Source: an uncultured archaeon
GTDB taxonomy: Archaea > Asgardarchaeota > Lokiarchaeia > Sigyniarchaeales > SOKP01
Reading direction: 5' to 3'
Length of the DNA stretch: 64,000 nucleotides
NCBI GenBank assembly: GCA_964486045.1
Contig: CAZALK010000003.1
Span: 192,001 to 256,000, forward strand
The position numbers and the translations under genes are program-made. This document shows, piece by piece, positions 25,923 through 49,514 of the stretch (its first letter is position 1; each line of letters opens with the position of its first letter). The notes below the pieces were generated by a model that did not search any database, had not been told where the DNA came from, and saw only the letters and a list, made by a program, of their open reading frames with translations.

Positions 25923-28900
25923 TTAATTATATTTATCTAAATACGTTTCAATCATGGATATAATTTGATCAAAATCGTAATGCTTTACTGCTATTGCTCC
26001 ATTTGGGCAAGTTGCTGCACAAGTGCCACATCCTTTACACAGTGCAGGATGAATAAAAGACTTTTTTACAACTAAGCTAACCTCTTCATAATCTTGTGTA
26101 GTCTCAATAAGTTCTATTGCGTTATAGGGGCAAATCTCGACACACTTACCACATCCAATGCACACGTCAGGATTTGATTCAGCTACAATTCCGGAAGTCG
26201 TAATTTGCTTCGCACTTAAAAAGCGACTTGCCCTTCCAGCAGCTCCATTAGCTTGAGCTATTGAATCTTGTATATTCTTGGGCCACTGTGCACATCCACA
26301 GAGAAAAATTCCTTCCGTAGCAAAATCTAAAGGTCTTAATTTAACATGAGCTTCTAAAAAGAATCCATTTCTATCTAAGGGTACTTTCAGTTTTTTTGCC
26401 AATTCTCCTAAATTATCTGCGGGAACTATCGGTGTTGATAACACAATCAAATCTGTATCAAACTCAATAGATTCTTGTAAATTTGTATCAAATACTTTTA
26501 TTCCATATTTTTCTGGGTTACTACTTTTCACAGTAACTTCTGGGATACTATCTAAATCATATCTCAAAAACATTGCATCTTTTCTCCGATCACGATAATA
26601 TTCCTCGTATTTCTTTTTAGCCATTTGAAGATCTCTGTAAAGCACAACTATTTCAAGCTCAGGTTTTATTTCTCTTAAAAAACTTATATTTTTAATGGCA
26701 TTACCGCAGCAGGTGTTAGAACAGTAAGTTAAACCTTTTCCTTCATTTTGCCGTGCATTCACACACAAAATTGTGGTTACTCGATTAATATTCTCAAGCC
26801 AGGTTTTTGCTCCATTCTTTAATTTTTGTTCTAACTCTAATTGAGTTATTACATTTTTATTATTTTTACCATATTGAAAAAGGCCTTTAGGTTTAAATTC
26901 TTGGCCTCCTGTAGCAACAATAATAGTTCCAATTGTGAGATCATGCTCTTTTTCCGAGTTTGTAACAGTAATCTTATAATTGCCAATGTAACCTTTAACA
27001 TTCTTCGCTTCAGATTCAAGGAAAACTTTAATATTTTTATTCTTGTGAACTAGATCTTTAGTTTTTTCAAGAAGAATTGAAGCATCTTCATGAATAGGAT
27101 AAAGTTTGTTTAAATAGTTTAGATTACCTCCTAAGAACTTCTCCTTCTCAACAATATAGGTTTGAAATCCTTGATTCGCTAAATTCAATGCGGCAGTTAA
27201 TCCTGAGATCCCCCCACCAATTATTAATGCGGTTGGGGTAATTTCTAATAATTCTTCTTTTAAAGGTTTCAATAGCCTTGATTTAGCAACGGCCATTTCA
27301 ATTAGATCTTTCGCCTTGGCTGTAGCAGCTTCGAACTCTTTCATATGGACCCAAGAACACTGATCGCGAATATTAACCATCTCAAATAAATATTTATTTA
27401 AACCGATTTCCTCGCAAGTTTCTTGAAAAAGAGACTCATGTGTTCTTGGAGTACATGAAGCAACAATGAATCTGTTCAATTTATGTTCTTTAATTAATTC
27501 CTTAATTTTTACTTGAGAATCAGAACTACAAGAATATAAATTATCTTCGCAATGAACTACGTTAGGAAGTGTTCGGATATATTCCGCTACGTTAGGGACA
27601 TTTACATATTTTCCAATATTAATACCACACCAACAAATTAAAACGCCAATTCGAGGTTTATCTGTAATTTTTACTTCTTTTTCAACCTCTTCCACTACTT
27701 TTTCATTCATTTGAGTGAATTTAACAGTATTCAATAGCATAGCTACTTGAGATGCTACTCCGCTAGCATCAGAAACGGTTTCTGGAATGTCCATTGGACC
27801 TTGACAGAATCCACATAAAAATATTCCCTCTTTTGACGATATTGCTTTATCATAATATGATTTTTCTTTGAAGAACTGATAATTATCCAGTTCTAAATCT
27901 AATATTGATGCTAATTCTTTAGTCCCTTTTGAAGGCACTAATGGTGTGGCTAAGACAACGAGATTTGCCTTGAATTTACTAAATTTTCCCGTTTTCAGAT
28001 TTTCATAACGAATAATCAAATCATTTGTTTCAACATCTTCATCAATTTTACTAATTTTTGTCTGGAAATATTTTACTCCATACTCACTTTGTGCTCTTTG
28101 AGTAAATTCATAGAAGTTTTTACCATATGCCCTGATATCGTGCCTAAAAACATAACAATTAGAATGTTCAGAATGTTCTTTTGTAACAATTGCCTCTTTA
28201 GCTGTATACATACAACAAACTGAGGAGCAATATGGGACATTTTCATGTAAATCTCGCGAACCCGCACATTGAATAAAAGCGATATTTTCGGGTTCTTTTT
28301 CATCACTCGGTCTTAATACTTGACCTCCAAATGGTCCAGAAGCAGATAGAATTCTTTCATATTCAAGGGCACTCACAACATTTTTAAATTTATAACCCCA
28401 TCTAGATGATAATTCTTCACCTAGCATATCAAATCCAGTTGCTACTACAATGGCTCCAACATTTAATTTAATTTCTTGAGGTTTTTGCTCATAATTAATT
28501 GCCTTTGGTTCACACACCTTCTCACAAACCCCACAAACACCCTTCGTAAGCTTTAGACAAAGCTCAGGGTCAATTAAATAGACTGGAGGAACCGCTTGAG
28601 GAAAAGGGATATAGACAGATTTTCTTTTACCCAAGTTCATGTCGAAGATATTCCCAACCTCAATTTTGGGGCATTTTGTGGCACAGTCACCGCATGCCTT
28701 ACATTTATCCTCTTCGATAAACCTAGGTTTCTTTAAGACGGTAACATTAAAGTTTCCGGATTTTCCAGAAATTTCTTTAACTTCGTGATAAGTCATCAAT
28801 TTGATGTTAGGATTCCTATAGACTTCAACCATTTTTGGTGCTAAAATACAGAGGGAACAATCATTTGTCGGAAAAGTTTTATCAAGTTGAGACATTCTAC

Positions 28901-29015
28901 CTCCAATTGAAGGATCTCTTTCAACTAAATAGACCTTGAATCCTAATTCAGTTAGATCCAGTGATGTCTGGATTCCAGCAATTCCTGCGCCAATGACCAA
29001 AACTGAACCTTCCAT
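25923..29015 (-). CDS. hdrA: HdrA-like polyferredoxin flavoprotein (permuted, double FAD, Cys form)
   Basis: FPTNDCSLC, QCAGSRD, YCSSVCC, internal ICWCG / YSCS / ASCTPRTHE / NIRDQCSWVH domain. Confidence 0.95.
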   Translation of the reverse strand: MEGSVLVIGAGIAGIQTSLDLTELGFKVYLVERDPSIGGRMSQLDKTFPTNDCSLCILAPKMVEVYRNPNIKLMTYHEVKEISGKSGNFNVTVLKKPRFIEEDKCKACGDCATKCPKIEVGNIFDMNLGKRKSVYIPFPQAVPPVYLIDPELCLKLTKGVCGVCEKVCEPKAINYEQKPQEIKLNVGAIVVATGFDMLGEELSSRWGYKFKNVVSALEYERILSASGPFGGQVLRPSDEKEPENIAFIQCAGSRDLHENVPYCSSVCCMYTAKEAIVTKEHSEHSNCYVFRHDIRAYGKNFYEFTQRAQSEYGVKYFQTKISKIDEDVETNDLIIRYENLKTGKFSKFKANLVVLATPLVPSKGTKELASILDLELDNYQFFKEKSYYDKAISSKEGIFLCGFCQGPMDIPETVSDASGVASQVAMLLNTVKFTQMNEKVVEEVEKEVKITDKPRIGVLICWCGINIGKYVNVPNVAEYIRTLPNVVHCEDNLYSCSSDSQVKIKELIKEHKLNRFIVASCTPRTHESLFQETCEEIGLNKYLFEMVNIRDQCSWVHMKEFEAATAKAKDLIEMAVAKSRLLKPLKEELLEITPTALIIGGGISGLTAALNLANQGFQTYIVEKEKFLGGNLNYLNKLYPIHEDASILLEKTKDLVHKNKNIKVFLESEAKNVKGYIGNYKITVTNSEKEHDLTIGTIIVATGGQEFKPKGLFQYGKNNKNVITQLELEQKLKNGAKTWLENINRVTTILCVNARQNEGKGLTYCSNTCCGNAIKNISFLREIKPELEIVVLYRDLQMAKKKYEEYYRDRRKDAMFLRYDLDSIPEVTVKSSNPEKYGIKVFDTNLQESIEFDTDLIVLSTPIVPADNLGELAKKLKVPLDRNGFFLEAHVKLRPLDFATEGIFLCGCAQWPKNIQDSIAQANGAAGRASRFLSAKQITTSGIVAESNPDVCIGCGKCVEICPYNAIELIETTQDYEEVSLVVKKSFIHPALCKGCGTCAATCPNGAIAVKHYDFDQIISMIETYLDKYN

Positions 29016-30295
29016 TAATCTTTTGCTCCTTGATTTTCCTTAACATTGACTAAGTTTATTAAGTCTGCGATAAACTCTGAAAAATCTAAAATCTGAACCG
29101 AAGCAAGATCCTCATAATCCTCTTGAAGACACTGCAAATGAATTCGACATTTAGGACAAGAGGTTACCATTATCGTTCCTGCTGCTTTTGCTTCTATTAC
29201 ACGTTTGTATCGTAACGCCTTAGATTTTTCATTACAATTCATCCAAGAATTAACACCACAGCATAACGCATCTTTTTTATTGTGAGCCATTTCATTAAAT
29301 TCGTAGCCCTGATCTTTTAACTGGTCAAAAATCTCTCTTACTTGTTCCATTATCATATCGTCTTTTGATAAAAACCTACTTAATCTGCACGGATCATGAT
29401 ATGTAAATTTAATTTTTTCTTCTTCTTGATTTGGATTCTTGAACTCAATTTTTCCTTGCTTCCAACTATCATAGATATACTCAATAATATGGACGACTTT
29501 GAATTTTTTATTGAAATCATCGAAAAGATTTTGATAGTCAATTTTAAAAGTTCTATAACACTCCGCGCATGCTGTAACGATTGTAGTTATTCCTGAGCTT
29601 TCGAAAGCTTTCACATTCTTTTCTGCTAATCTTATAAATGTTTCTAAGTCGCCTTGACCCCAATATAAATCGTGTCCACAACAAATTTCATCCTTCTTAA
29701 CGACAATTGGTTCCTTCTCGATTAGGCATAATAATTTTAATGTATTTTCCGAAATTGAATCTAAATTCTCAAATTCAAATTTAAAATAAGGTAAGCATCC
29801 AACATAATATAAAATATCCCCTTTATCGGAAGTTTTGCATTCTTTTGGTATCCAATCAAGGTTTCTCTTTGGAGTGATGCTTGATTGACTCATAATCTCC
29901 GATATTGTAGTATATATTCCCTTATGAGCAATATAATCATCAACATTATGAGTACGTAATTTTCTCATTTTATATTTCGCGACTCGTGCTAAATCTGCAA
30001 AACTAATATCCTCCGGACAATAAGTCATGCATGTGTTACAAGTCAAACAATCCCATAAAACACCACTCTCAAGGACTTTATCTTCAAATCCTTCAAAAAT
30101 CAATTGAATAATCTTACTTGGTGTGTATTTTTGTACTTTTGAAATCTGGCACACCCCAGAGCACCGTCCACATTGGTAACAGCGCTTTATCATGTTACGC
30201 AGATCTTCTTCATAGATCCTCCTTAGATAATAATCAGTTTTCTCTATTCCCTTCTCCGAGGCATTTTGTGGCTTCTTTCCTATCATTATTCCCAC
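29015..30295 (-). CDS. HdrD/GlpC-like Fe-S oxidoreductase (ferredoxin + two CCG domains)
   Basis: CYQCGRCSGVC, CLTCNTCMTYCP, CCG, TYHDPC, CCG, SCPKC. Translationally coupled to hdrA. Confidence 0.9.
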   Translation of the reverse strand: MGIMIGKKPQNASEKGIEKTDYYLRRIYEEDLRNMIKRCYQCGRCSGVCQISKVQKYTPSKIIQLIFEGFEDKVLESGVLWDCLTCNTCMTYCPEDISFADLARVAKYKMRKLRTHNVDDYIAHKGIYTTISEIMSQSSITPKRNLDWIPKECKTSDKGDILYYVGCLPYFKFEFENLDSISENTLKLLCLIEKEPIVVKKDEICCGHDLYWGQGDLETFIRLAEKNVKAFESSGITTIVTACAECYRTFKIDYQNLFDDFNKKFKVVHIIEYIYDSWKQGKIEFKNPNQEEEKIKFTYHDPCRLSRFLSKDDMIMEQVREIFDQLKDQGYEFNEMAHNKKDALCCGVNSWMNCNEKSKALRYKRVIEAKAAGTIMVTSCPKCRIHLQCLQEDYEDLASVQILDFSEFIADLINLVNVKENQGAKD

Positions 30296-32065: not shown

Positions 32066-34180
32066 TTACATACTAAATGTGTTACAGAAGTGATTGAGAA
32101 CTATATTGTTATAATTGAACTGAGCGTAATATTTATAAGCATAATTTTACTAAAATCTTTTAGTAATAATTTTTATGGCAAAATAATAGATAAAATCCCC
32201 AAAAATATTGGAATTCTAAAAAGTTTTCGAATATATTTTGAAACCAAAATGTTTATAAAAAATTGATAGAAATCTAGGTGGTTGGATATAAAAAAGAGAA
32301 ATCTTAAAGCAATTTTCATGGTACTGTCGTTTTTTTTTATGAATCTGAGTACCATTCCTTATATTTACGCTGCACAGGAAGAGACGGCCTCATTCTCGTG
32401 GGCTGTAACTACATTCTCGACATCAATGTCAAAAGTCTGGGCTGGTGAACCAACGCTTCAAAACTTTACCGGATCATTTATAAACTTCTTCACTTACATC
32501 GATCATTATATAAACCATTCTGATAACACCTATATTGAAGAAAAGCGTAGCGTTGATTATAGCGCGAATTACACCTATTTCTATAACTACACAATGGACG
32601 GGAGCCTCGATACGATTATTGATATAACAGTTTATAGAGTAGATGTCGATTATGGAAGTAGCGCACAGCTAATTTGGATGGCTTTAAAGAAGGGATTTTA
32701 TGAGATCGATTTGTACAGGGAAAATTTTATCTATAATTATGAATATAATGAATCCAGCCATCAAACAGTAGATAAAGAAATAAAAAAATATGATCTGGAT
32801 ACATTAGAACTGCTGGATTCTTGGAATGTGACGGAAGAAATAAATAAAACAGTGAGTTTTTCATATGGACGTTCCCAACAATCAATAAATGACCGTAGAA
32901 TATTTAATGAGACGTTTACCAAACCCCTTTTTCTTACATTCCAGATATATGAGACTGAAAAAGGAGATAGAATTGCATGGGCAAGTACATTTTCGGAATT
33001 CTTGGTTTTTAAGGATAAAAATGGGGACGGGATATATTCCGTTGGCGAGTTCGATTCCACGCCAACGGGACCACTGAATATGCATTCTTCTTCTGAATAT
33101 GCAGGTAGTTTTATCCCGACAGCATATGAGCAGGGACTTTTTATGGAAAGCCAAATACATAACGAGACTACTACAATTAGTTTTCCTTCCGATAAGACTG
33201 TTGATCAAGTCGTATCTGGTATTGAGTTTACTCCACCGTCTTTGGATGGAAACGATACAGTCGTGTGGGATATCAACTATCGAGGCTTTCCTCTAAAGGT
33301 CCATATTGGCACTAATGACATCCCTTTTGAGCAGCATATCAACCCTGGGTCACTATATAATGACGTTCTCCCAAGTGATTATTCTTATGGATTTGATTAT
33401 AAAATAGGAGGGGGAAAAGCAGATCTGAGTTTAACTTTAGGGCTTCCCGCTTTAACTGATATTGATACTTACAATATACTAGAGACAGAGAATTATGGAT
33501 TGTCTCTCCCACGATATGACTATTTTATCTCCTCATTCGACATTAAGGAAAAGAACCCAAGAAAAGTGACCATGCCAGCTGAAAGTTTTGTTTTTGAATC
33601 AAATAACCAGACCGTAGCTGAGATAAATCTAATCAACCCCATTAAGGAAAATTATACTTTATATGATTACCCAAATATAGGAGATAATATATCTGTTGAA
33701 TCACGAGGAGCAAGTATTAATAATCTAATTATCGCTTCTAATAGTTTACAAGTGTGGGAACCGGAGGTATTATTTTTATATACTATTGAAGATCTTGTCA
33801 GTAATATTCCGGGGTTTACCGTGGTGGACGAGTTAGCTCATATACACACAGAAAATTATCCTGTGTGGGCGGGGAAAAAATTAGTACATGATCCCACTAA
33901 TACAATTTACTTTAAGAATATAACCATGCCGTTTCGAGTGGCGGCAGCGGGAATCATCTCAGGATATGATGTTGGTGTCATTTTTGGTTCATTGAGTCTA
34001 GTGGTTTTATTTATAACCATAAAACGGAAGAAATTAAAAAAAAAGTAGCCTTCTTTTTTTATAAATTCTATTTTCATTTTTTTTGTAAAAAGAAAGTTAT
34101 CTCCTTGCGATCAAGTTAGATTTTCTCTAACTTTCTAAAAAAATTAGCTATTTGAGAATAAATTTTTTCATTTTTATCAT
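32062..34180 (+). repeat. about 2.1 kb duplicated segment, copy 1
   Basis: Upstream region near-identical to 39151-39370, paralogous CDS, and similar downstream region (gctatttgagaataaat) at about 34150 and 41250. Confidence 0.9.
32288..34048 (+). CDS. secreted surface glycoprotein with Loki-CTERM-type anchor (paralog 1)
   Basis: Signal peptide, many NxS/T sequons, C-terminal ISGYD-TM-KRKK. Start is TTG 32282 or ATA 32288. Confidence 0.85.
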   Translation: MKKRNLKAIFMVLSFFFMNLSTIPYIYAAQEETASFSWAVTTFSTSMSKVWAGEPTLQNFTGSFINFFTYIDHYINHSDNTYIEEKRSVDYSANYTYFYNYTMDGSLDTIIDITVYRVDVDYGSSAQLIWMALKKGFYEIDLYRENFIYNYEYNESSHQTVDKEIKKYDLDTLELLDSWNVTEEINKTVSFSYGRSQQSINDRRIFNETFTKPLFLTFQIYETEKGDRIAWASTFSEFLVFKDKNGDGIYSVGEFDSTPTGPLNMHSSSEYAGSFIPTAYEQGLFMESQIHNETTTISFPSDKTVDQVVSGIEFTPPSLDGNDTVVWDINYRGFPLKVHIGTNDIPFEQHINPGSLYNDVLPSDYSYGFDYKIGGGKADLSLTLGLPALTDIDTYNILETENYGLSLPRYDYFISSFDIKEKNPRKVTMPAESFVFESNNQTVAEINLINPIKENYTLYDYPNIGDNISVESRGASINNLIIASNSLQVWEPEVLFLYTIEDLVSNIPGFTVVDELAHIHTENYPVWAGKKLVHDPTNTIYFKNITMPFRVAAAGIISGYDVGVIFGSLSLVVLFITIKRKKLKKK

Positions 34181-42860: not shown

Positions 42861-43064
42861 TCCCTGTGTAAATATACTCTGACTTGGTGTTAACCATAGA
42901 CATTGAACCTTTTCTCGTTTTAGTTTTTAATTTAGATTATCCTCTCCATGGTTTTTTCCATAGCGTTTTAGGATCTAACCCGTTTTTAAGCTGATTTTAG
43001 AGCCGAATATTATATTTTCGCTGAAATATTAAAAAAAGTAATAAAAGGTTATATTCGCATTAGG

Positions 43065-43301
43065 TTATTCCACAGAGCTGGGCACAGGGTCGGTGTATGT
43101 GGAATCACAGTGGGCACATACTTTATATCCTTTTGTAAAGTCCAACTCTTCTATTTTCCCACAGTATGGGCATTTTGGCATATTCCGTCTTTTTCGTTCC
43201 TTTCGTTTATTTAACCATTGATTTAGAAAGCGTTGAACAACGATTACAATAACTCCTGAAGTAATCCCTGAAATCATCCCTGTTATTATAGCTTCGAGCA
43301 T
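43065..43301 (-). CDS. small TM + zinc-ribbon protein
   Basis: N-terminal TM helix, CPYC...CAHC. Confidence 0.65.
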   Translation of the reverse strand: MLEAIITGMISGITSGVIVIVVQRFLNQWLNKRKERKRRNMPKCPYCGKIEELDFTKGYKVCAHCDSTYTDPVPSSVE

Positions 43302-43348
43302 AATAATTATCAAATTTCATTTCATACTAATAAGGTTAACTATTCATT

Positions 43349-43598
43349 TGCCACCACTTGTGGTTAATTAAAAAAAGAAGAAAAATATTATTTTTTATTA
43401 AAAATCCAATTCAATCTCTATATTCTTCTTTTATTAAAGGCACACCATTAATATTATCAATACCTATCATATCATTTACTTTTTTAACAATAATCTCTTC
43501 AATCTTTTTTATTTGTTCTTCAGTAAAGATTTCACTCATCTTTCTTTCTCACCCCCTTAATTGTTTCTGCCACCGCTGGTGGTTAATTAAAAAAAGAA
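43349..43598. repeat. pair of 31-bp direct repeats (43349-43379, 43568-43598)
   Basis: tgccacc(a/g)ct(t/g)gtggttaattaaaaaaagaa, 29/31 identical. Confidence 0.85.
43411..43539 (-). CDS. 42-aa hypothetical protein
   Basis: MSEIFTEEQIKKIEEIIVKKVNDMIGIDNINGVPLIKEEYRD, preceded by SD-like GGGGGTGA. Confidence 0.6.
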   Translation of the reverse strand: MSEIFTEEQIKKIEEIIVKKVNDMIGIDNINGVPLIKEEYRD

Positions 43599-43877
43599 AG
43601 AAATTAAGGTTTATTTTAGGAATAAACAATCGAGCGTTTATCCCCTTAAAAGCCTACGATTTGACGATTTGGAGACCACACACAAGAAAATAATAATCCA
43701 AATCCTCAAGACCGAATTATAATCATAAGTTCACTACCTAATGCACTTATTATTAGATGGACGAAGTAAAACGGGGATCGGCTTTTAATCTTAGTTCCCA
43801 ATGTTCTTCCTTATTAAAATATATAATAGATTTTGAAAAGTTTTAATGCTCATAATATCTTATTTTGGTTGTTAAAA

Positions 43878-45380
43878 CTATTCTTTTTTATTATCTAAAA
43901 TTATTGGTTTACATCCTTTTCGTTTTGATCCGGCTATTCGTTCCAACAGGGCTAATCCGGGTTTAATTTCTTTTAGATTTTTGGATTCAATTAAACCAGC
44001 TTTAACTGCATCATTAAAGATTTTATCACCTTGCTTAGATCGGGTTATAACGGAAGACCATCCACTCGGAGACCCTATTGATCCCACAGAAATGTCAGCA
44101 TAATCTGCTGTAAGGTCTTCACAAAATCCGCAATTTGGTCTAGCATATGATTTTACCTCTTTAAGAGGGACTTTTTCGACTTCTCCAGATTTCAAGGATA
44201 TAATAAACTTGCCACCACTTATGTCCATTTTTGTTATTTCGTTAAGTTTTTTCTCGAATTTTTCTCCTGATAATTTAAAAACATTTTCAAACGAAAAAGC
44301 TTCCATACAAAATAGTCCAATTGTGTATTTGATATTTTTAAAGAATGGCAATCCCCCTGGATAAAAACTTCCTTTCTGAAGAGCAGTTATCATACATGGA
44401 GTACCAACAACAGCGATATTTTCATATTTTTTTGTTTTACTAATAATTGCTAAAGTTGACGCATTTGCATATTTAGTTCCACCCGTTTCATATAAATCTT
44501 TTACATCATCAACAATAACTGGTTCTGGTCTCCATAAATCATCAGCATGTTTCACAGCTACTATGGCATCTACTAACTTTTTTTTTAGTAAAAATTCGAG
44601 TAGAGCAGTGACTATTCCTCCGTCTTGTCGGACCTTTTTAATCTCTTCATTAGTAGTTGATGCTGAATAAACATTTTTGTATCCATTTATCTTAGCTGAA
44701 AATGTCAATGACTTATCGACTTTGCTAATACTTAGACCTGCTTGTGCAATTGAAAACGATTTACTGCACACGGAATAACATATTCCACATTTCATACAAA
44801 TTTCGTCATCAATTTCAAGCGTATCTGCTGTAACTGTTATGGCATCTACTGGACATACAGATGAACACCAACCACAATTACAACATACTCCGGAATCGAA
44901 CACAAGGGAAACAGCGTCAAAAAAATTCTCAATAAAATCATCTGCTAAAGGTTTCAACTGATATCTATAAAAGTAACTTTTGACTTCAACTTCTTTTTCT
45001 ACTCCCTTTACTTTCTTTGTGATTTTTTTTACCTTTACTTCAATATGTTCATCTACATACCCTTGCTCTTTTAAATAAATAACATCACGAATTACATTAG
45101 CAGCGGGAAATTCTTCAATTTTTTGTGCGATTTCTTCTAAGAATAACGGCTCTAAACCCTTTAATCTCTCCAAAATTAATTTACGTTCCGTCTCAGCGTC
45201 AATCATTGAGTCCAGAATTTCATAGAACTCATTTTCATCATATTTTCCAATATTAAGAATCTCGCCCTTTGCTTCAAAAAAAGCTCGAACTTGAAAATTT
45301 GCTGATCCTTGATATGTAGCTTCCATTAACTCCTTTGGAGATATTTTGGTAAATAATTTGTTATTTACAGTTTCGACCAT
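43878..45380 (-). CDS. frhB: FrhB-family protein with N-terminal helical/winged-helix extension and ferredoxin
   Basis: CCNCGWCSSVCP, CMKCGICYSVC, QDGGIVT, VGTPC, GLFCME, CGFCED...ADISVG. Confidence 0.9.
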   Translation of the reverse strand: MVETVNNKLFTKISPKELMEATYQGSANFQVRAFFEAKGEILNIGKYDENEFYEILDSMIDAETERKLILERLKGLEPLFLEEIAQKIEEFPAANVIRDVIYLKEQGYVDEHIEVKVKKITKKVKGVEKEVEVKSYFYRYQLKPLADDFIENFFDAVSLVFDSGVCCNCGWCSSVCPVDAITVTADTLEIDDEICMKCGICYSVCSKSFSIAQAGLSISKVDKSLTFSAKINGYKNVYSASTTNEEIKKVRQDGGIVTALLEFLLKKKLVDAIVAVKHADDLWRPEPVIVDDVKDLYETGGTKYANASTLAIISKTKKYENIAVVGTPCMITALQKGSFYPGGLPFFKNIKYTIGLFCMEAFSFENVFKLSGEKFEKKLNEITKMDISGGKFIISLKSGEVEKVPLKEVKSYARPNCGFCEDLTADYADISVGSIGSPSGWSSVITRSKQGDKIFNDAVKAGLIESKNLKEIKPGLALLERIAGSKRKGCKPIILDNKKE

Positions 45381-45445
45381 TCTTTCTTCAATTTCCTATT
45401 AATTTTAATATATTTTTAATACTATTTTTATAAAAACTTGTAAGA

Positions 45446-45513
45446 ACCCCTTCCTTTGCAGGGCTAGTCATCTTATAACTAAAATTTTTTTATAAGATTC
45501 ATTCAGCAGGGGT
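45446..45513 (-). promoter_or_regulatory. eukaryote-type SECIS element (core 45463-45507) within a putative three-way junction
   Basis: mRNA: ACCCCU GCUG A AUGA A UCUUAUAA [AAAAAUUUUAG] UUAUAAGA UGAC UAGC CCU[GCAA]AGG A AGGGGU. Shows helix I, AUGA/GA core, perfect 8-bp helix II and an A-rich loop. Confidence 0.85.
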
Positions 45514-45960
45514 AATTAATGATTCTTCTTTCTTTTTTGAAATTTTTACTCCTAATTTTTTTATCGGATTGGGACCTTCTCTTTCTACCTTTTCGTATGC
45601 ATCTTCTACGCTTTTCACGAATTTCTCACTTTCAGCTCCGCTTAACCAGTACATATTTACTCTCTGATGTCCAAAGCCTCTAGAAGCTAATATCCTATTT
45701 GCTAAGTCTACATGTGTTTGTGCGGAAAAGTTTCCTTGTTTGTATTGGCATTCATTGGGGCGTCATCCTACTACCATGACTCCATCTGCTCCCGACAAAA
45801 TGGTATAGAGAATATGCTTTAAATCGACTCTTCCTGTACATCGCACTTTGATTATTTTCACCGAAGTGGTATATTTCAACCGAGAAACACCTGCTAAGTC
45901 GGCAGCACTATACCCTCATTTCAAGCAAGCAAATGCAATTATCTGGTAGTTATTTTCCAT
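45499..45960 (-). CDS. mvhD: selenoprotein MvhD/VhuD (Sec15, Sec66), 153 aa
   Basis: MENNYQIIAFACLK-U-GYSAADLAGVSR...VRCTGRVD...GVMVVG-U-RPNECQY. UGAs at 45916-45918 and 45763-45765 align with Cys in the paralog at 20232-20681. Confidence 0.93.
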
Positions 45961-45964
45961 TTGT

Positions 45965-47941
45965 TTATACACCTCCTAAAAGACCAGTAATTTCAGCGAA
46001 TAATTGATAGTCTCGATAATATAATATATCGATCGCTTGAGTAGGACAACACGTAGCGCAAATACCGCAGCCATCACAGTTTATAGTATCTACAAAAGCT
46101 CCAATTTCCTTATCGATTTTTATAGCATTCTTTGGGCAAGCCTTTTCACAACGTCTACATGAAATACAATATTCACTTGCTACTTGAGCAGTAATCAGTT
46201 CAATATCTACTTCTCCAGGTGATGTTAATTCAGCGACTTTACTTGCTGCCGCTCTAGCTTGTGATACTGAATATGCTATATTTTTCGGTCCTTGTGCGAA
46301 GCCAGCAATATATATCCCTTTTGTTTTAGTTTCTTGAGGCATTAAACCAAAGTGAGATTCAGTAAGGAAACCATATATATTAGTATCAAGGTTCAATACT
46401 TTGGCAATTTGGTTCGTACCTTTTGAAGGGAGTGCTGCTGAGGAGAGTATTACTAAGTCCGCATCAATTTTAATGATTTCGTCAGTTAACGATGAATACA
46501 CTCGAAGATTAACATTTTTTGTTTCAGGATCTTCAGAAATCTCCCCAACTTTACCGCGAATCATCCTAATACCAGAATCTTTGGCACGTTGGTAATATTC
46601 TTCAAAACCTTTTTCACCAGCCCTGATGTCAATGTAACAGATAGTAATATTCGCGTCAGGAAATTCTTCTAACAATAATTTTCCATTCTTAAGCGATAGC
46701 ATACAGCAAACCCCGCTACAGTAAGTTCTTTCTGTAGTTCTACTCCCTACGCATTGTATGAATACGATTTCTTTCGGTTTTTTTTTATCATCAGATAGTC
46801 TTCTTACATGCCCTTCTAATGGTCCGTTCGGAGCTAGCATTCGTTCTAATTGAACTTGAGTTATAACATTGTCAAATTCTCCGTATCCGTATTCCCCAAA
46901 TGGTTCATACATATCCCAACCAGTTGCGATTATGATTGAACCGACATCTAGATTAACTTCTTTTGGTAATTGACTAAAATCAATAGTACCTAATTCGCAA
47001 GCGTCTATACATGCGAAACACTCAACACAGGCATTTCTATTTATGTCATAGAGAAAGGGTACAGCTTGACCAAATGCTATATCAATTGCTTTTCGTGCTC
47101 CTAAATTTTCATCAAAGAAGTTTGAAGTATAGACAGGGCACACTTCTGAGCATGCACCACAACCATTACACTCATCCGTAACAAAGCGCGGTTTCATTTC
47201 TACTTTTACTCTATAATTACCGACATACCCTTCGACTTCCTTCACTTCACTATAACTTAAAATCTCAATATTCTCGTTTCTATTGACATTTAGCATCACA
47301 GGTCCGCATATTCAAATCGAACAATCATCCGTGGGAAATGTACGATCCAGTTGGGCCATCCGTCCCCCTATAGTGGTTTTGTTTTCCACAAGATAAACTT
47401 TTATGCCTTGATTCGCAAGATCTAGAGCCGCGTTCATCCCAGCAATCCCAGCTCCTACAATTAAAGAAGCCTTTGTAACTGGAACGGTTTTGACAGGTAT
47501 ATCTTCTAAGTTCTTTGCCCGTTCTATCCCGCTTTTTACCAAAATTTTTGCTTTCTCTAAAGCCTCTGAGTTATGTTTTGTACACCATGAAACATGTTCC
47601 CGTATATTTACCATTTGGAAGTAATAGGGACTTAGATCTGTCTTTTTAATCGTGCTTCGATAAATAGGTTCATGTGTGCGTGGTGTTCATGCAGCAGCGA
47701 CAATACGATTCAAGTTTTTCTCTTTGATATCTTCCATAATTTCATTCTGCGCAGCTTCAGTTCATAGAAAACCGTTCTTTTTTGATAATACTATTTCATC
47801 CCCTAAACTTTGAGCATAATCTACGAGCGCATTAACATCTATTTTGCTTTTAATGTTAACTCCTCACTCACAAGAATAAAATCCAATCCGTAGTTCTTCA
47901 GTTTCTTTATTTTCACTAGTTTCATTCCGTTGACTATTCAT
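45965..47941 (-). CDS. hdrA: selenoprotein HdrA with four Sec (U26, U60, U85, U210), 658 aa
   Basis: Single frame from ATG 47941 with UGA at 47864-66, 47762-64, 47687-89 and 47312-14. Each aligns with Cys in paralog 25923-29015. Joins ORFs 47312-47614 and 45965-47299. Confidence 0.93.
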
Positions 47942-48218
47942 TTTTTACACCTTTTTTAAATTTCCACCTCAATTATTGATTATCAATTTCAACCATAAGG
48001 TTGATTTTAATTTTAATTTTCAAAATTAAATCACTTCTAATTTAAATTTTATTGATTTTTAAAACTTTTAATCTTTTTGTTTATCAAATTAAACAAGATT
48101 TTGTGGATTGCTTACTTACTTAAACCATTTTTAATGGGATCGGTTTAAAATTTCGGAAAGCATGAGAAATTAGGATGATGAATGATCAATAAGTATAGTG
48201 CGAAAAAACTTTGTAAAT

Positions 48219-49514
48219 TTAAATACTTAGAATTTCTTTTATAAGAGAGATTATTGTTTTTGTATTGAAAACAGATGTTTCTGCTGTTTTAATAAATTCT
48301 TTTATTTGATCATGATAATGTTTTTCAAAATGATTAAGAAAGTAAACTAATCTCTCTTTTAAACTTTGATTAGCGGATTTAGACAAAAATAAAGCTAATT
48401 TTATAAATTTACCATATGTTGCATGGATGTATAAGCCTTTATAATTAATTTCTTCCATAGAAGTAGTGCCCCCTAGTTGCGACATAAAAGAATCCATAGC
48501 TGACAAAAATCCTGATATTAGCTCTTTATCAACAGGGTAGTCTTCGCTTGCATGAGATACCATGTTTACCCCTGATATTTTATCAATGATTAATAGGCTT
48601 CTGAAGATATCATTGAATTTTGGCTTAACAGCTATTGAATGCTCCTCGGCAAGTAAAATTTTGCTGGGAAGTAATTCATACATAGTATAAGATTTAGATT
48701 TGTAAGCTTCCTTTTCTTTAAAATAATAACTGGATATAGTAGTTAATCGGGATGGTGCTCGAATTGGTTCATGTGGTAATTTTTTAATATACTCATCTCG
48801 CAACCTTGTGTCATGATCTTTAGATTTTTTGCCTTTAGTTATACCATAAATTTTCTGATGAATAGGATCAACTACGTAAAACCAAGCACGTAATTTCTGC
48901 ATATCTGAAACCAATCTTTTAAATCCAATATTTCGAACACCCCTGGGAGTGGTAACAAAAACAGTCCATAGAACTATTTTTGAGGCTTCACTGATCTGAT
49001 AAAAAGTGTCTTTATAATTTTCTTCTGTCAGTTCCTCTCCAGTCCTTATAAATACACCTTCAGTTCTTAATAATGGTTTTTTCTTAATTAAATAAAGATC
49101 TATTAAAAAATCTTTGATATCTGATGCATTGTAGACAATTATTCCCCAATCCGCTCCCTGATCTGCAAATGCGTCAATTAATTCTTGTTTGGAGATAAAA
49201 TCAAATCGTGTGATGTAATCACTTAGTTTCTCATCTTTTGTGATAGTATCTCCAATGAATGTTAAAAAAGTAGAATATTTCATCTGGAGATCAGGACTAG
49301 TTTGATATTTCTTAAAAAGATGAATGGATATAAGATCAAGTAATTCTAATTTAGTTAATGACTCATCCTCTGGGGTTGGAATATTATTTGTTTCCATGAA
49401 ATCATAAATTTCCTTGAACCTACTTCTTACGATTAAACAGTTCAAACATAAAATACCAATTTTCCCTTCGTTTTCTTTTTGAATCGTTTCTAAAATTTCA
49501 GTTGAGGATGGCAA
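48219..49514 (-). CDS. hypothetical protein with C-terminal longin/roadblock-like domain
   Basis: C-terminal LLIIDKISGV...LISGFLSAMDSFMSQL, typical of Asgard longin-like domains. Confidence 0.7.
   Translation of the reverse strand: MPSSTEILETIQKENEGKIGILCLNCLIVRSRFKEIYDFMETNNIPTPEDESLTKLELLDLISIHLFKKYQTSPDLQMKYSTFLTFIGDTITKDEKLSDYITRFDFISKQELIDAFADQGADWGIIVYNASDIKDFLIDLYLIKKKPLLRTEGVFIRTGEELTEENYKDTFYQISEASKIVLWTVFVTTPRGVRNIGFKRLVSDMQKLRAWFYVVDPIHQKIYGITKGKKSKDHDTRLRDEYIKKLPHEPIRAPSRLTTISSYYFKEKEAYKSKSYTMYELLPSKILLAEEHSIAVKPKFNDIFRSLLIIDKISGVNMVSHASEDYPVDKELISGFLSAMDSFMSQLGGTTSMEEINYKGLYIHATYGKFIKLALFLSKSANQSLKERLVYFLNHFEKHYHDQIKEFIKTAETSVFNTKTIISLIKEILSI

Follow-up and report, generated by a model that had tools for sequence, protein, structure and literature searches.

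A four-selenocysteine hdrA gene of the published Lokiarchaeota type, and the placement of its selenocysteine sites on HdrA structures

The hdrA locus

The stretch of DNA analysed here, 64,000 nucleotides long and referred to as "the window", comes from an uncultured Asgard archaeon (GenBank assembly GCA_964486045.1, contig CAZALK010000003.1, positions 192,001 to 256,000). Its minus strand carries a gene for HdrA, an electron-bifurcating flavoprotein of the type of heterodisulfide reductase subunit A, that contains four in-frame UGA codons, followed by a gene of the FlpD family (vhuD, or mvhD) with two more, and by a single eukaryote-like selenocysteine insertion sequence (SECIS) element. The analysis confirmed that the hdrA gene with four selenocysteine (Sec, or U) codons is real but already known. 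Mariotti et al. described in 2016 a HdrA of Lokiarchaeota with up to four Sec residues at five possible positions, encoded in tandem with vhuD and provided with one SECIS element for six UGAs (PMC4989117), and a survey of 2024 catalogued the arrangement across 227 Sec-using Asgard genomes (PMC11227280). The novelty implied by an earlier reading of the window, made from the letters alone (the sequence-only reading), is thus lost, since an HdrA with up to four Sec residues has been in print since 2016 (PMC4989117).

The features of hdrA, in window coordinates, are the following.

45965..47941, minus strand: hdrA coding sequence, 658 codons plus the stop codon TAA (45967..45965), with four UGA codons for Sec (translation with TGA = U)
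47866..47864, minus strand: U26 codon, in-frame TGA
47764..47762, minus strand: U60 codon, in-frame TGA
47689..47687, minus strand: U85 codon, in-frame TGA
47314..47312, minus strand: U210 codon, in-frame TGA

The hdrA reading frame and its product

The sequence-only reading had described a single frame with four UGAs and no TAA or TAG, without stating the strand, and translation of the minus strand with TGA read as Sec bears this out: there is no TAA or TAG and no frameshift across the 658 codons, and the plus-strand translation of 45965-47941 is full of stops. The probability that a random frame of 658 codons would be free of TAA and TAG is about 5e-15 in this window of 32% guanine plus cytosine, and a chance origin of the open frame is excluded. 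Under translation table 11 the gene is split into open reading frames (ORFs) of 444 aa (45965..47299) and 100 aa (47312..47614), and vhuD is not called.

The best structural match of the translated protein is the HdrA of M. maripaludis (9sfi_A; E 7.8e-193, 645 bits, residues 17-656), and full-length alignments were also obtained with 5odc_A (E 7.7e-185), 8rvu_a and 7bkb_A. Pfam domains were found at residues 160-256 (Pyr_redox_2/NAD_binding_8) and at 251-317 and 585-640 (Fer4 families), and the cysteines at positions 258/261/264/268, 305/308/311/315, 397/408/412/413, 592/595/598/602 and 622/625/628/632 are each kept in at least 90% of 81 orthologues. The window copy thus combines full-length similarity to HdrA with the Rossmann and ferredoxin motifs, the N-terminal Cys/Sec residues and the DCxxC/U pair of the family, and its sequence predicts a complete HdrA, made up of an N-terminal [4Fe-4S] domain, a thioredoxin-reductase-like domain that binds flavin adenine dinucleotide (FAD) and has a cluster of its own, and inserted and C-terminal ferredoxin domains.

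Each of the four UGAs had been matched by the sequence-only reading with a cysteine in an all-Cys HdrA paralogue of 1030 aa encoded elsewhere in the window (29015..25923, minus strand). BLASTP of the window HdrA against this paralogue reproduces all four pairs: SCE-U-G with ICW-C-G, FL-U-T with YS-C-S, AA-U-TPRTHE with AS-C-TPRTHE, and DCSI-U-I with DCSL-C-I.

Conservation of the selenocysteine sites

Orthologues were collected by a stop-read-through search of 40 relatives and by a separate scan of species-representative genomes, which yielded 80 orthologous loci at 72-82% identity, mostly from metagenome-assembled genomes (MAGs) titled Promethearchaeota or Promethearchaeia, with a few under other Asgard phylum labels. 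Among the 40 relatives, no fewer than 15 congeneric species have an orthologue with four TGAs and approximately 80% identity. The occupancy of the sites in the 80 loci is as follows.

Site 26: TGA (U) in 78 of 80 loci
Site 60: TGA (U) in 56 of 80 loci, Cys in the remainder
Site 85: TGA (U) in 79 of 80 loci
Site 210: TGA (U) in 80 of 80 loci
Site 625: U in one locus of 80 (a fifth Sec)

At these five columns the only codons that occur, in orthologues and paralogues alike, are TGA, TGT and TGC, and the hdrA stop codon is TAA or TAG in all 78 of 78 loci. When the window gene is compared with its orthologues, the nonsynonymous divergence (dN) is 0.09-0.29 and the synonymous divergence (dS) is at least 1.6 or saturated in all three segments examined, including codons 17-84 and codons 86-209. 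Since these two segments are constrained even though they lie upstream of TGAs, they bear directly on the question of decoding, as they would be untranslated if UGA terminated. The hallmarks of a selenoprotein gene are accordingly present: UGA interchanges with Cys codons only, purifying selection acts on both sides of the UGAs, and the decoding machinery is found in the same genome (see below). The sequence-only reading had named, as outcomes that would speak against a genuine four-Sec HdrA, a genome lacking the Sec machinery, or orthologues with codons other than UGA and Cys under relaxed selection. Neither was borne out, and the reality of the gene which that reading proposed is supported by the orthologous sites and by the selection acting on them.

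Three of the relatives' sequences depart from the common pattern. In one orthologue (L043, G011:C38:4590-6521), the last ferredoxin motif contains a fifth Sec, at column 625 (CDGUG). An HdrA paralogue of one relative (L053, G023:C1:1502307-1504241) has a TGA directly after an NLREHCSFVS motif, which is possibly a sixth Sec position beyond the published five. The HdrA frame of a third locus (L054, G031:C209:9538-11505) extends to 828 residues and contains four further TGAs past the usual C-terminus; the extension may come from reading on into the adjacent gene, or from a fusion.

vhuD and the shared SECIS element

The features that follow hdrA on the same strand are these.

45499..45960, minus strand: vhuD/mvhD (FlpD family), 153 codons, starting 4 nt past the hdrA stop; Pfam FlpD, E 5e-42
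45918..45916, minus strand: vhuD U15 codon, in-frame TGA
45765..45763, minus strand: vhuD U66 codon, in-frame TGA
45501..45499, minus strand: vhuD stop codon UGA, within the AUGA core of the SECIS element
45446..45513, minus strand: predicted eukaryote-like lokiSECIS, common to vhuD and hdrA; RNA fold of -19.9 kcal/mol, z = -3.0
45502..45499, minus strand: AUGA core of the element, including the vhuD stop
45498..45490 with 45478..45470, minus strand: perfect 9-bp stem, as folded
45489..45479, minus strand: 11-nt loop AAAAAUUUUAG, as folded
45469..45468, minus strand: GA of the element, followed by the closing lower helix

The best structural match of the VhuD protein is the VhuD of M. maripaludis (9sfi_K, E 7.7e-36), in which the two corresponding residues are likewise X (Sec), and U15 aligns with Cys16 of the MvhD of M. 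marburgensis.

The same SECIS geometry occurs at the same place in 75 of the 75 orthologous loci with downstream sequence long enough to contain it; the background rate is 0.027 hits per kb. Across these loci the AUGA is invariant (75), the GA is GA in 62 and AA in 13, the loop has 11 nt in 71, and the commonest loop start is AAAAA. Stem pairs 1, 2, 4, 6 and 7 have undergone changes on both sides, and in paralogous operons the 9-bp, 11-nt geometry is retained although the stems are quite different. Downstream of the all-Cys paralogues L022 and L023 there is no such element. An Rfam scan of 43000-49000 with E up to 1 gave no match, a result that says little because the presence of an Asgard or archaeal SECIS model in Rfam was not checked. 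The six UGAs (four in hdrA and two in vhuD) lie 263-2364 nt upstream of the SECIS core.

Another pattern resembling a SECIS element, at 32450-32493 on the minus strand (GUGA, a stem of 9 bp in which one position does not pair, and GA), was rejected: it is antisense inside a plus-strand ORF of 588 aa, there is no selenoprotein-like frame upstream of it, and about 3 chance matches are expected in the window. The possibility that HdrA's N-terminal domain and VhuD share a fold with homologous Sec positions was also considered. BLASTP between the two was not significant, and a profile-profile comparison placed U85 of HdrA opposite U66 of VhuD in a weak match (probability 2.4%, E 0.019).

Selenocysteine machinery in the genome

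The genome to which the window belongs comprises 5.18 Mb in 45 contigs and is 99% complete, with an estimated contamination of 7.8%. The machinery that the sequence-only reading had proposed to look for was found in it. A tRNA-Sec scores 63.5 bits, over the cut-off, and has the anticodon UCA according to ARAGORN. A SepSecS gene (390 bits, over the cut-off) lies 1.3 kb from the tRNA-Sec gene, and on the opposite side of it, at 4 kb, lies a gene for an EFSec/SelB-like GTPase (231 bits, cut-off 242). There is a PSTK-like gene (E 1e-40), and there are two adjacent SelD genes over the cut-off, which themselves carry 1 and 2 in-frame TGAs (L003 and L004, G000:C1:756646-759741). Besides all-Cys HdrA paralogues, the genome encodes two more Sec-HdrA paralogues, with 2 and 3 TGAs (L020, G000:C17:4085-6034, and L021, G000:C7:190697-192655), each with its own vhuD and with a SECIS element of different stem sequence. 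In three of four relatives assembled as a single contig, a tRNA-Sec over the cut-off is present on the same contig as TGA-containing hdrA genes.

Decoding of the UGA codons

It is highly probable, on the evidence above, that the gene is a functional hdrA of a Promethearchaeota (Lokiarchaeota-type Asgard) archaeon in which all four UGAs are read as Sec. The UGAs would be decoded by the archaeal/eukaryotic-type Sec pathway, with tRNA-Sec(UCA), PSTK, SepSecS, SelD and EFSec. The two genes would be carried on one hdrA-vhuD transcript, and recoding would be directed by the single eukaryote-like SECIS at the end of the vhuD cistron, which would serve six UGAs, four in hdrA and two in vhuD, as has been proposed (PMC4989117); the UGA inside the SECIS core would terminate vhuD. 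The HdrA produced most likely operates together with VhuD and the FrhB-like protein encoded downstream in a flavin-based module for electron bifurcation or confurcation, in which selenols would replace thiols at cluster and relay positions that move in catalysis.

Several points weigh against this reading. To direct Sec insertion, the SECIS element would have to act over distances of as much as 2.4 kb and past the boundary between two cistrons, a mode of action inferred from comparative genomics. The PSTK and EFSec matches lie under the curated cut-offs of models that were built for other lineages, and the Sec machinery is located on contigs other than that of hdrA in a MAG with 7.8% contamination. 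In one relative with a four-TGA orthologue (G006, CP070831.1, a single contig, 90% complete), no tRNA-Sec was found above the Rfam cut-off, the best candidate reaching 43 bits.

If the UGAs instead act as terminators, only fragments would be made, for example from the 444-aa C-terminal ORF beginning with GTG at 47299; alternatively, termination might occur conditionally, when selenium is scarce. In its favour, table 11 yields two separate ORFs, HdrA units without an N-terminal domain do occur naturally (unit 1 of the fused paralogue described below), and Sec decoding is never fully efficient. The 444-aa fragment, however, would begin past both the FAD-binding GxGxxG motif and the DCxxU pair, and the codons upstream of each TGA are as strongly constrained as the rest of the gene. 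The TGAs are moreover fixed at invariant Cys columns in 80 loci, where they toggle with Cys codons only, and they are accompanied by a conserved SECIS element and complete Sec machinery, so that termination is an improbable account of the locus.

An explanation with still less to recommend it, and one that must be considered very improbable, is that UGA does not encode Sec here: it would either be reassigned to Trp, Gly or Cys, or a near-cognate tRNA would read it through. Stop-codon recoding is reported for some Asgard lineages (PMC9723677). In the window, however, TGA is the ordinary stop codon of 6 of 33 long ORFs, table 11 leaves most genes unbroken, and in-frame TGA is limited to known selenoprotein families (HdrA, VhuD and SelD), always at Cys columns, in a genome with a dedicated tRNA-Sec and SECIS elements. 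That the gene is a decaying pseudogene with accumulated nonsense mutations is barely conceivable, for although it has four in-frame stops under the standard code, lacks two cysteines (36 and 117) present in more than 90% of its orthologues, and has many other hdrA paralogues in the genome which could compensate for its loss, it contains no TAA, TAG or frameshift in 658 codons, and the same four TGAs recur in many species whose proteins are approximately 80% identical, dN being far smaller than dS.

Selenocysteine sites and the HdrA shuttle cluster

Only where it maps the Sec sites onto HdrA structures solved since 2017 does this analysis go beyond the published papers. In the alignment, C24, U26, U60 and U85 correspond to the four Cys/Sec residues that are invariant in the N-terminal domain across the five solved HdrAs, and C207 and U210 align with their invariant DCxxC pair, which lies beside the bifurcating FAD. 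Counted along the alignment, the equivalents of C24, U26, U60, U85 and U210 in 5ODC are Cys11, Cys13, Cys46, Cys71 and Cys197. U210 corresponds to Sec197 of M. maripaludis HdrA and to Cys197 of the crystal structure. The sequence-only reading had identified the fourth site as the canonical methanococcal Sec197 position, and the X that stands opposite U210 in 9sfi_A, within DDCAMX, supports it.

HdrA's N-terminal domain houses a [4Fe-4S] cluster, termed A3 or HA3 (PMC9012536, PMC13518236), and Cys197 of the partner subunit is described as a ligand of this N-terminal cluster (PMC9012536). More recent cryo-electron microscopy, published in 2026, describes the DCxxC/U pair not as a fixed ligand but as a dynamic relay between the [2Fe-2S] cluster of VhuD/MvhD, A3/HA3 and the FAD (PMC13518236, PMC13580544). 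A selenylsulfide-like density (PMC13518236) and an unknown bound ligand (PMC13580544) have been seen at the pair, and Cys16 of MvhD, which aligns with the position of U15 in VhuD, is called an "additional conserved cysteine" of the relay (PMC13580544). The 2016 paper holds that the Sec sites are not cluster ligands (PMC4989117), but it predates the HdrA structures.

By analogy with these structures, the N-terminal domain with U26, U60 and U85 is predicted to be the one that carries the mobile HA3 "shuttle" cluster. Four ligands are needed, and there are five candidates (positions 24, 26, 60 and 85, together with 210 of the partner subunit), of which four are Sec; if all four ligands are among those five, at least three of them would then be selenolates. 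It is accordingly proposed, tentatively and in the knowledge that the proposal could well be wrong, that HA3 in this orthogroup is held mainly by selenolates, namely U60, U85 and possibly U26, with U210 of the partner subunit added in a crystal-like state, and that the FAD-side relay (C207/U210) and U15 of VhuD also present selenols. The inference of the sequence-only reading that three N-terminal Sec residues would give a largely selenolate-ligated cluster is plausible but unproven. The word "selenolate" was not found in use in the literature on HdrA, selenocysteine, Asgard archaea and the shuttle cluster (papers joining several of these topics). If the proposal is true, this would be a natural iron-sulfur site with 3-4 Fe-Se(Cys) bonds, probably tuned to fast ligand exchange or to low potential in bifurcation. 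The structural mapping turns "unusual redox chemistry" into a testable hypothesis, namely that the shuttle cluster is ligated by selenium and the relay formed by selenols.

Cysteines 36, 117 and 120

The window copy differs from its orthologues at two cysteine positions of the N-terminal domain, the codons of which are the following.

47834-47836, minus strand: hdrA codon 36, Val in the window copy
47591-47593, minus strand: hdrA codon 117, Val in the window copy

Cys36 and Cys117 are each kept by more than 90% of the orthologues, and the window copy is unique among 81 sequences in having Val at both. That the two positions are elsewhere nearly always both Cys hints at a possible pairing within the N-terminal domain.

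The difference between NIREHVSWC in the window HdrA and NIRDQCSWVH in the paralogue, to which the sequence-only reading had drawn attention, is reproduced by BLASTP, but the interpretation given to it, that of a displaced cysteine, does not hold. The motif of the orthogroup is V(R)EHCSWC, which contains both Cys117 and an extra cysteine, Cys120 (CSWC in 71 of 80 loci), so that Cys120 is an additional residue of the orthogroup and Cys117 has simply been lost from the window copy. The residue at position 117 in the solved HdrAs is D, C, N or D; a residue so variable is not a conserved ligand, and no displacement has taken place. A further extra cysteine of the orthogroup is Cys212 (UICGP).

Neighbouring genes and the all-Cys paralogue

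Two other features of the window are related to the hdrA-vhuD operon.

43878..45380, minus strand: frhB/fdhB-like gene downstream of the SECIS element, 500 aa with an N-terminal 4Fe-4S motif; Pfam FrhB_FdhB_C 1e-42, FrhB_FdhB_N 2e-21
25923..29015, minus strand: all-Cys HdrA paralogue, 1030 aa, with a stop-free translation; BLASTP to the window HdrA in three segments

In 74 of the 80 orthologous loci the same strand carries a homologue of the frhB-like gene downstream, and the product of the window's gene is likely to be the electron-input partner of the module. The comparative evidence shows hdrA-vhuD-SECIS-frhB to be a conserved module. The genes adjoining hdrA are vhuD and the frhB-like gene, and no hdrBC or hydrogenase gene adjoins it.

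The 1030-aa paralogue, which lies outside the selenoprotein operon, consists of two fused HdrA units that complement each other in their parts; unit 1 has DCSLC and lacks the N-terminal domain. It resembles the self-heterodimer pattern of Moorella and of anaerobic methanotrophic archaea (ANME), with a unit order opposite to that of the ANME fusions (PMC9012536). Upstream of it, in the region 25923-30295 on the minus strand, a protein of 426 aa is encoded which combines a CCG with a 4Fe-4S dicluster domain and is HdrB/C- or HdrD-like.

Comparison with known systems

The all-Cys HdrAs of the Mvh, Elp and Fdh-Hdr complexes (5ODC, 8RVU/9SW2 and 7BKB) share the fold and the cofactor motifs of the window protein, and their four invariant N-terminal cysteines and DCxxC pair match C24, U26, U60, U85, C207 and U210. 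Unlike the window protein they are selenium-free and come from methanogens, and they have D, C or N at position 117.

The HdrA of M. maripaludis (Sec197; PDB 9SFI; PMC13518236) has the same domain order, Sec at the DDCxxU site, and a VhuD partner with two Sec residues at matching positions. It differs in having one Sec rather than four, the N-terminal CxC, C and C all being Cys, and in its SECIS element, which is described in papers as euryarchaeal-type, as opposed to the eukaryote-like element found here. The partners of the M. maripaludis protein are the Vhu hydrogenase, Fdh, HdrBC and Fwd; no gene for any of them lies beside the window hdrA.

With the multi-Sec HdrA of Lokiarchaeota (PMC4989117, PMC11227280), the locus shares a SECIS element placed after vhuD, with an AUGA...GA core, a 9-bp stem, an 11-nt A-rich loop and an AUGA that doubles as the stop, as well as the TAA or TAG stop of hdrA and the provision of one element for six UGAs over approximately 2 kb. 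All five published Sec positions (26, 60, 85, 210 and 625) were recovered in the relatives examined here. Nothing categorical separates the window gene from the HdrA of 2016, as far as the published description goes; the window gene is another species' copy, without Cys36 and Cys117. Standard gene callers still break such genes, splitting hdrA and missing vhuD, so that Asgard metabolic reconstructions can miss them. The locus is a model example of two ideas already in print, that of the most Sec-rich archaeal enzyme and that of a single eukaryote-like SECIS element which recodes six UGAs over two cistrons, and as such it bears on the origin of the eukaryotic Sec system.

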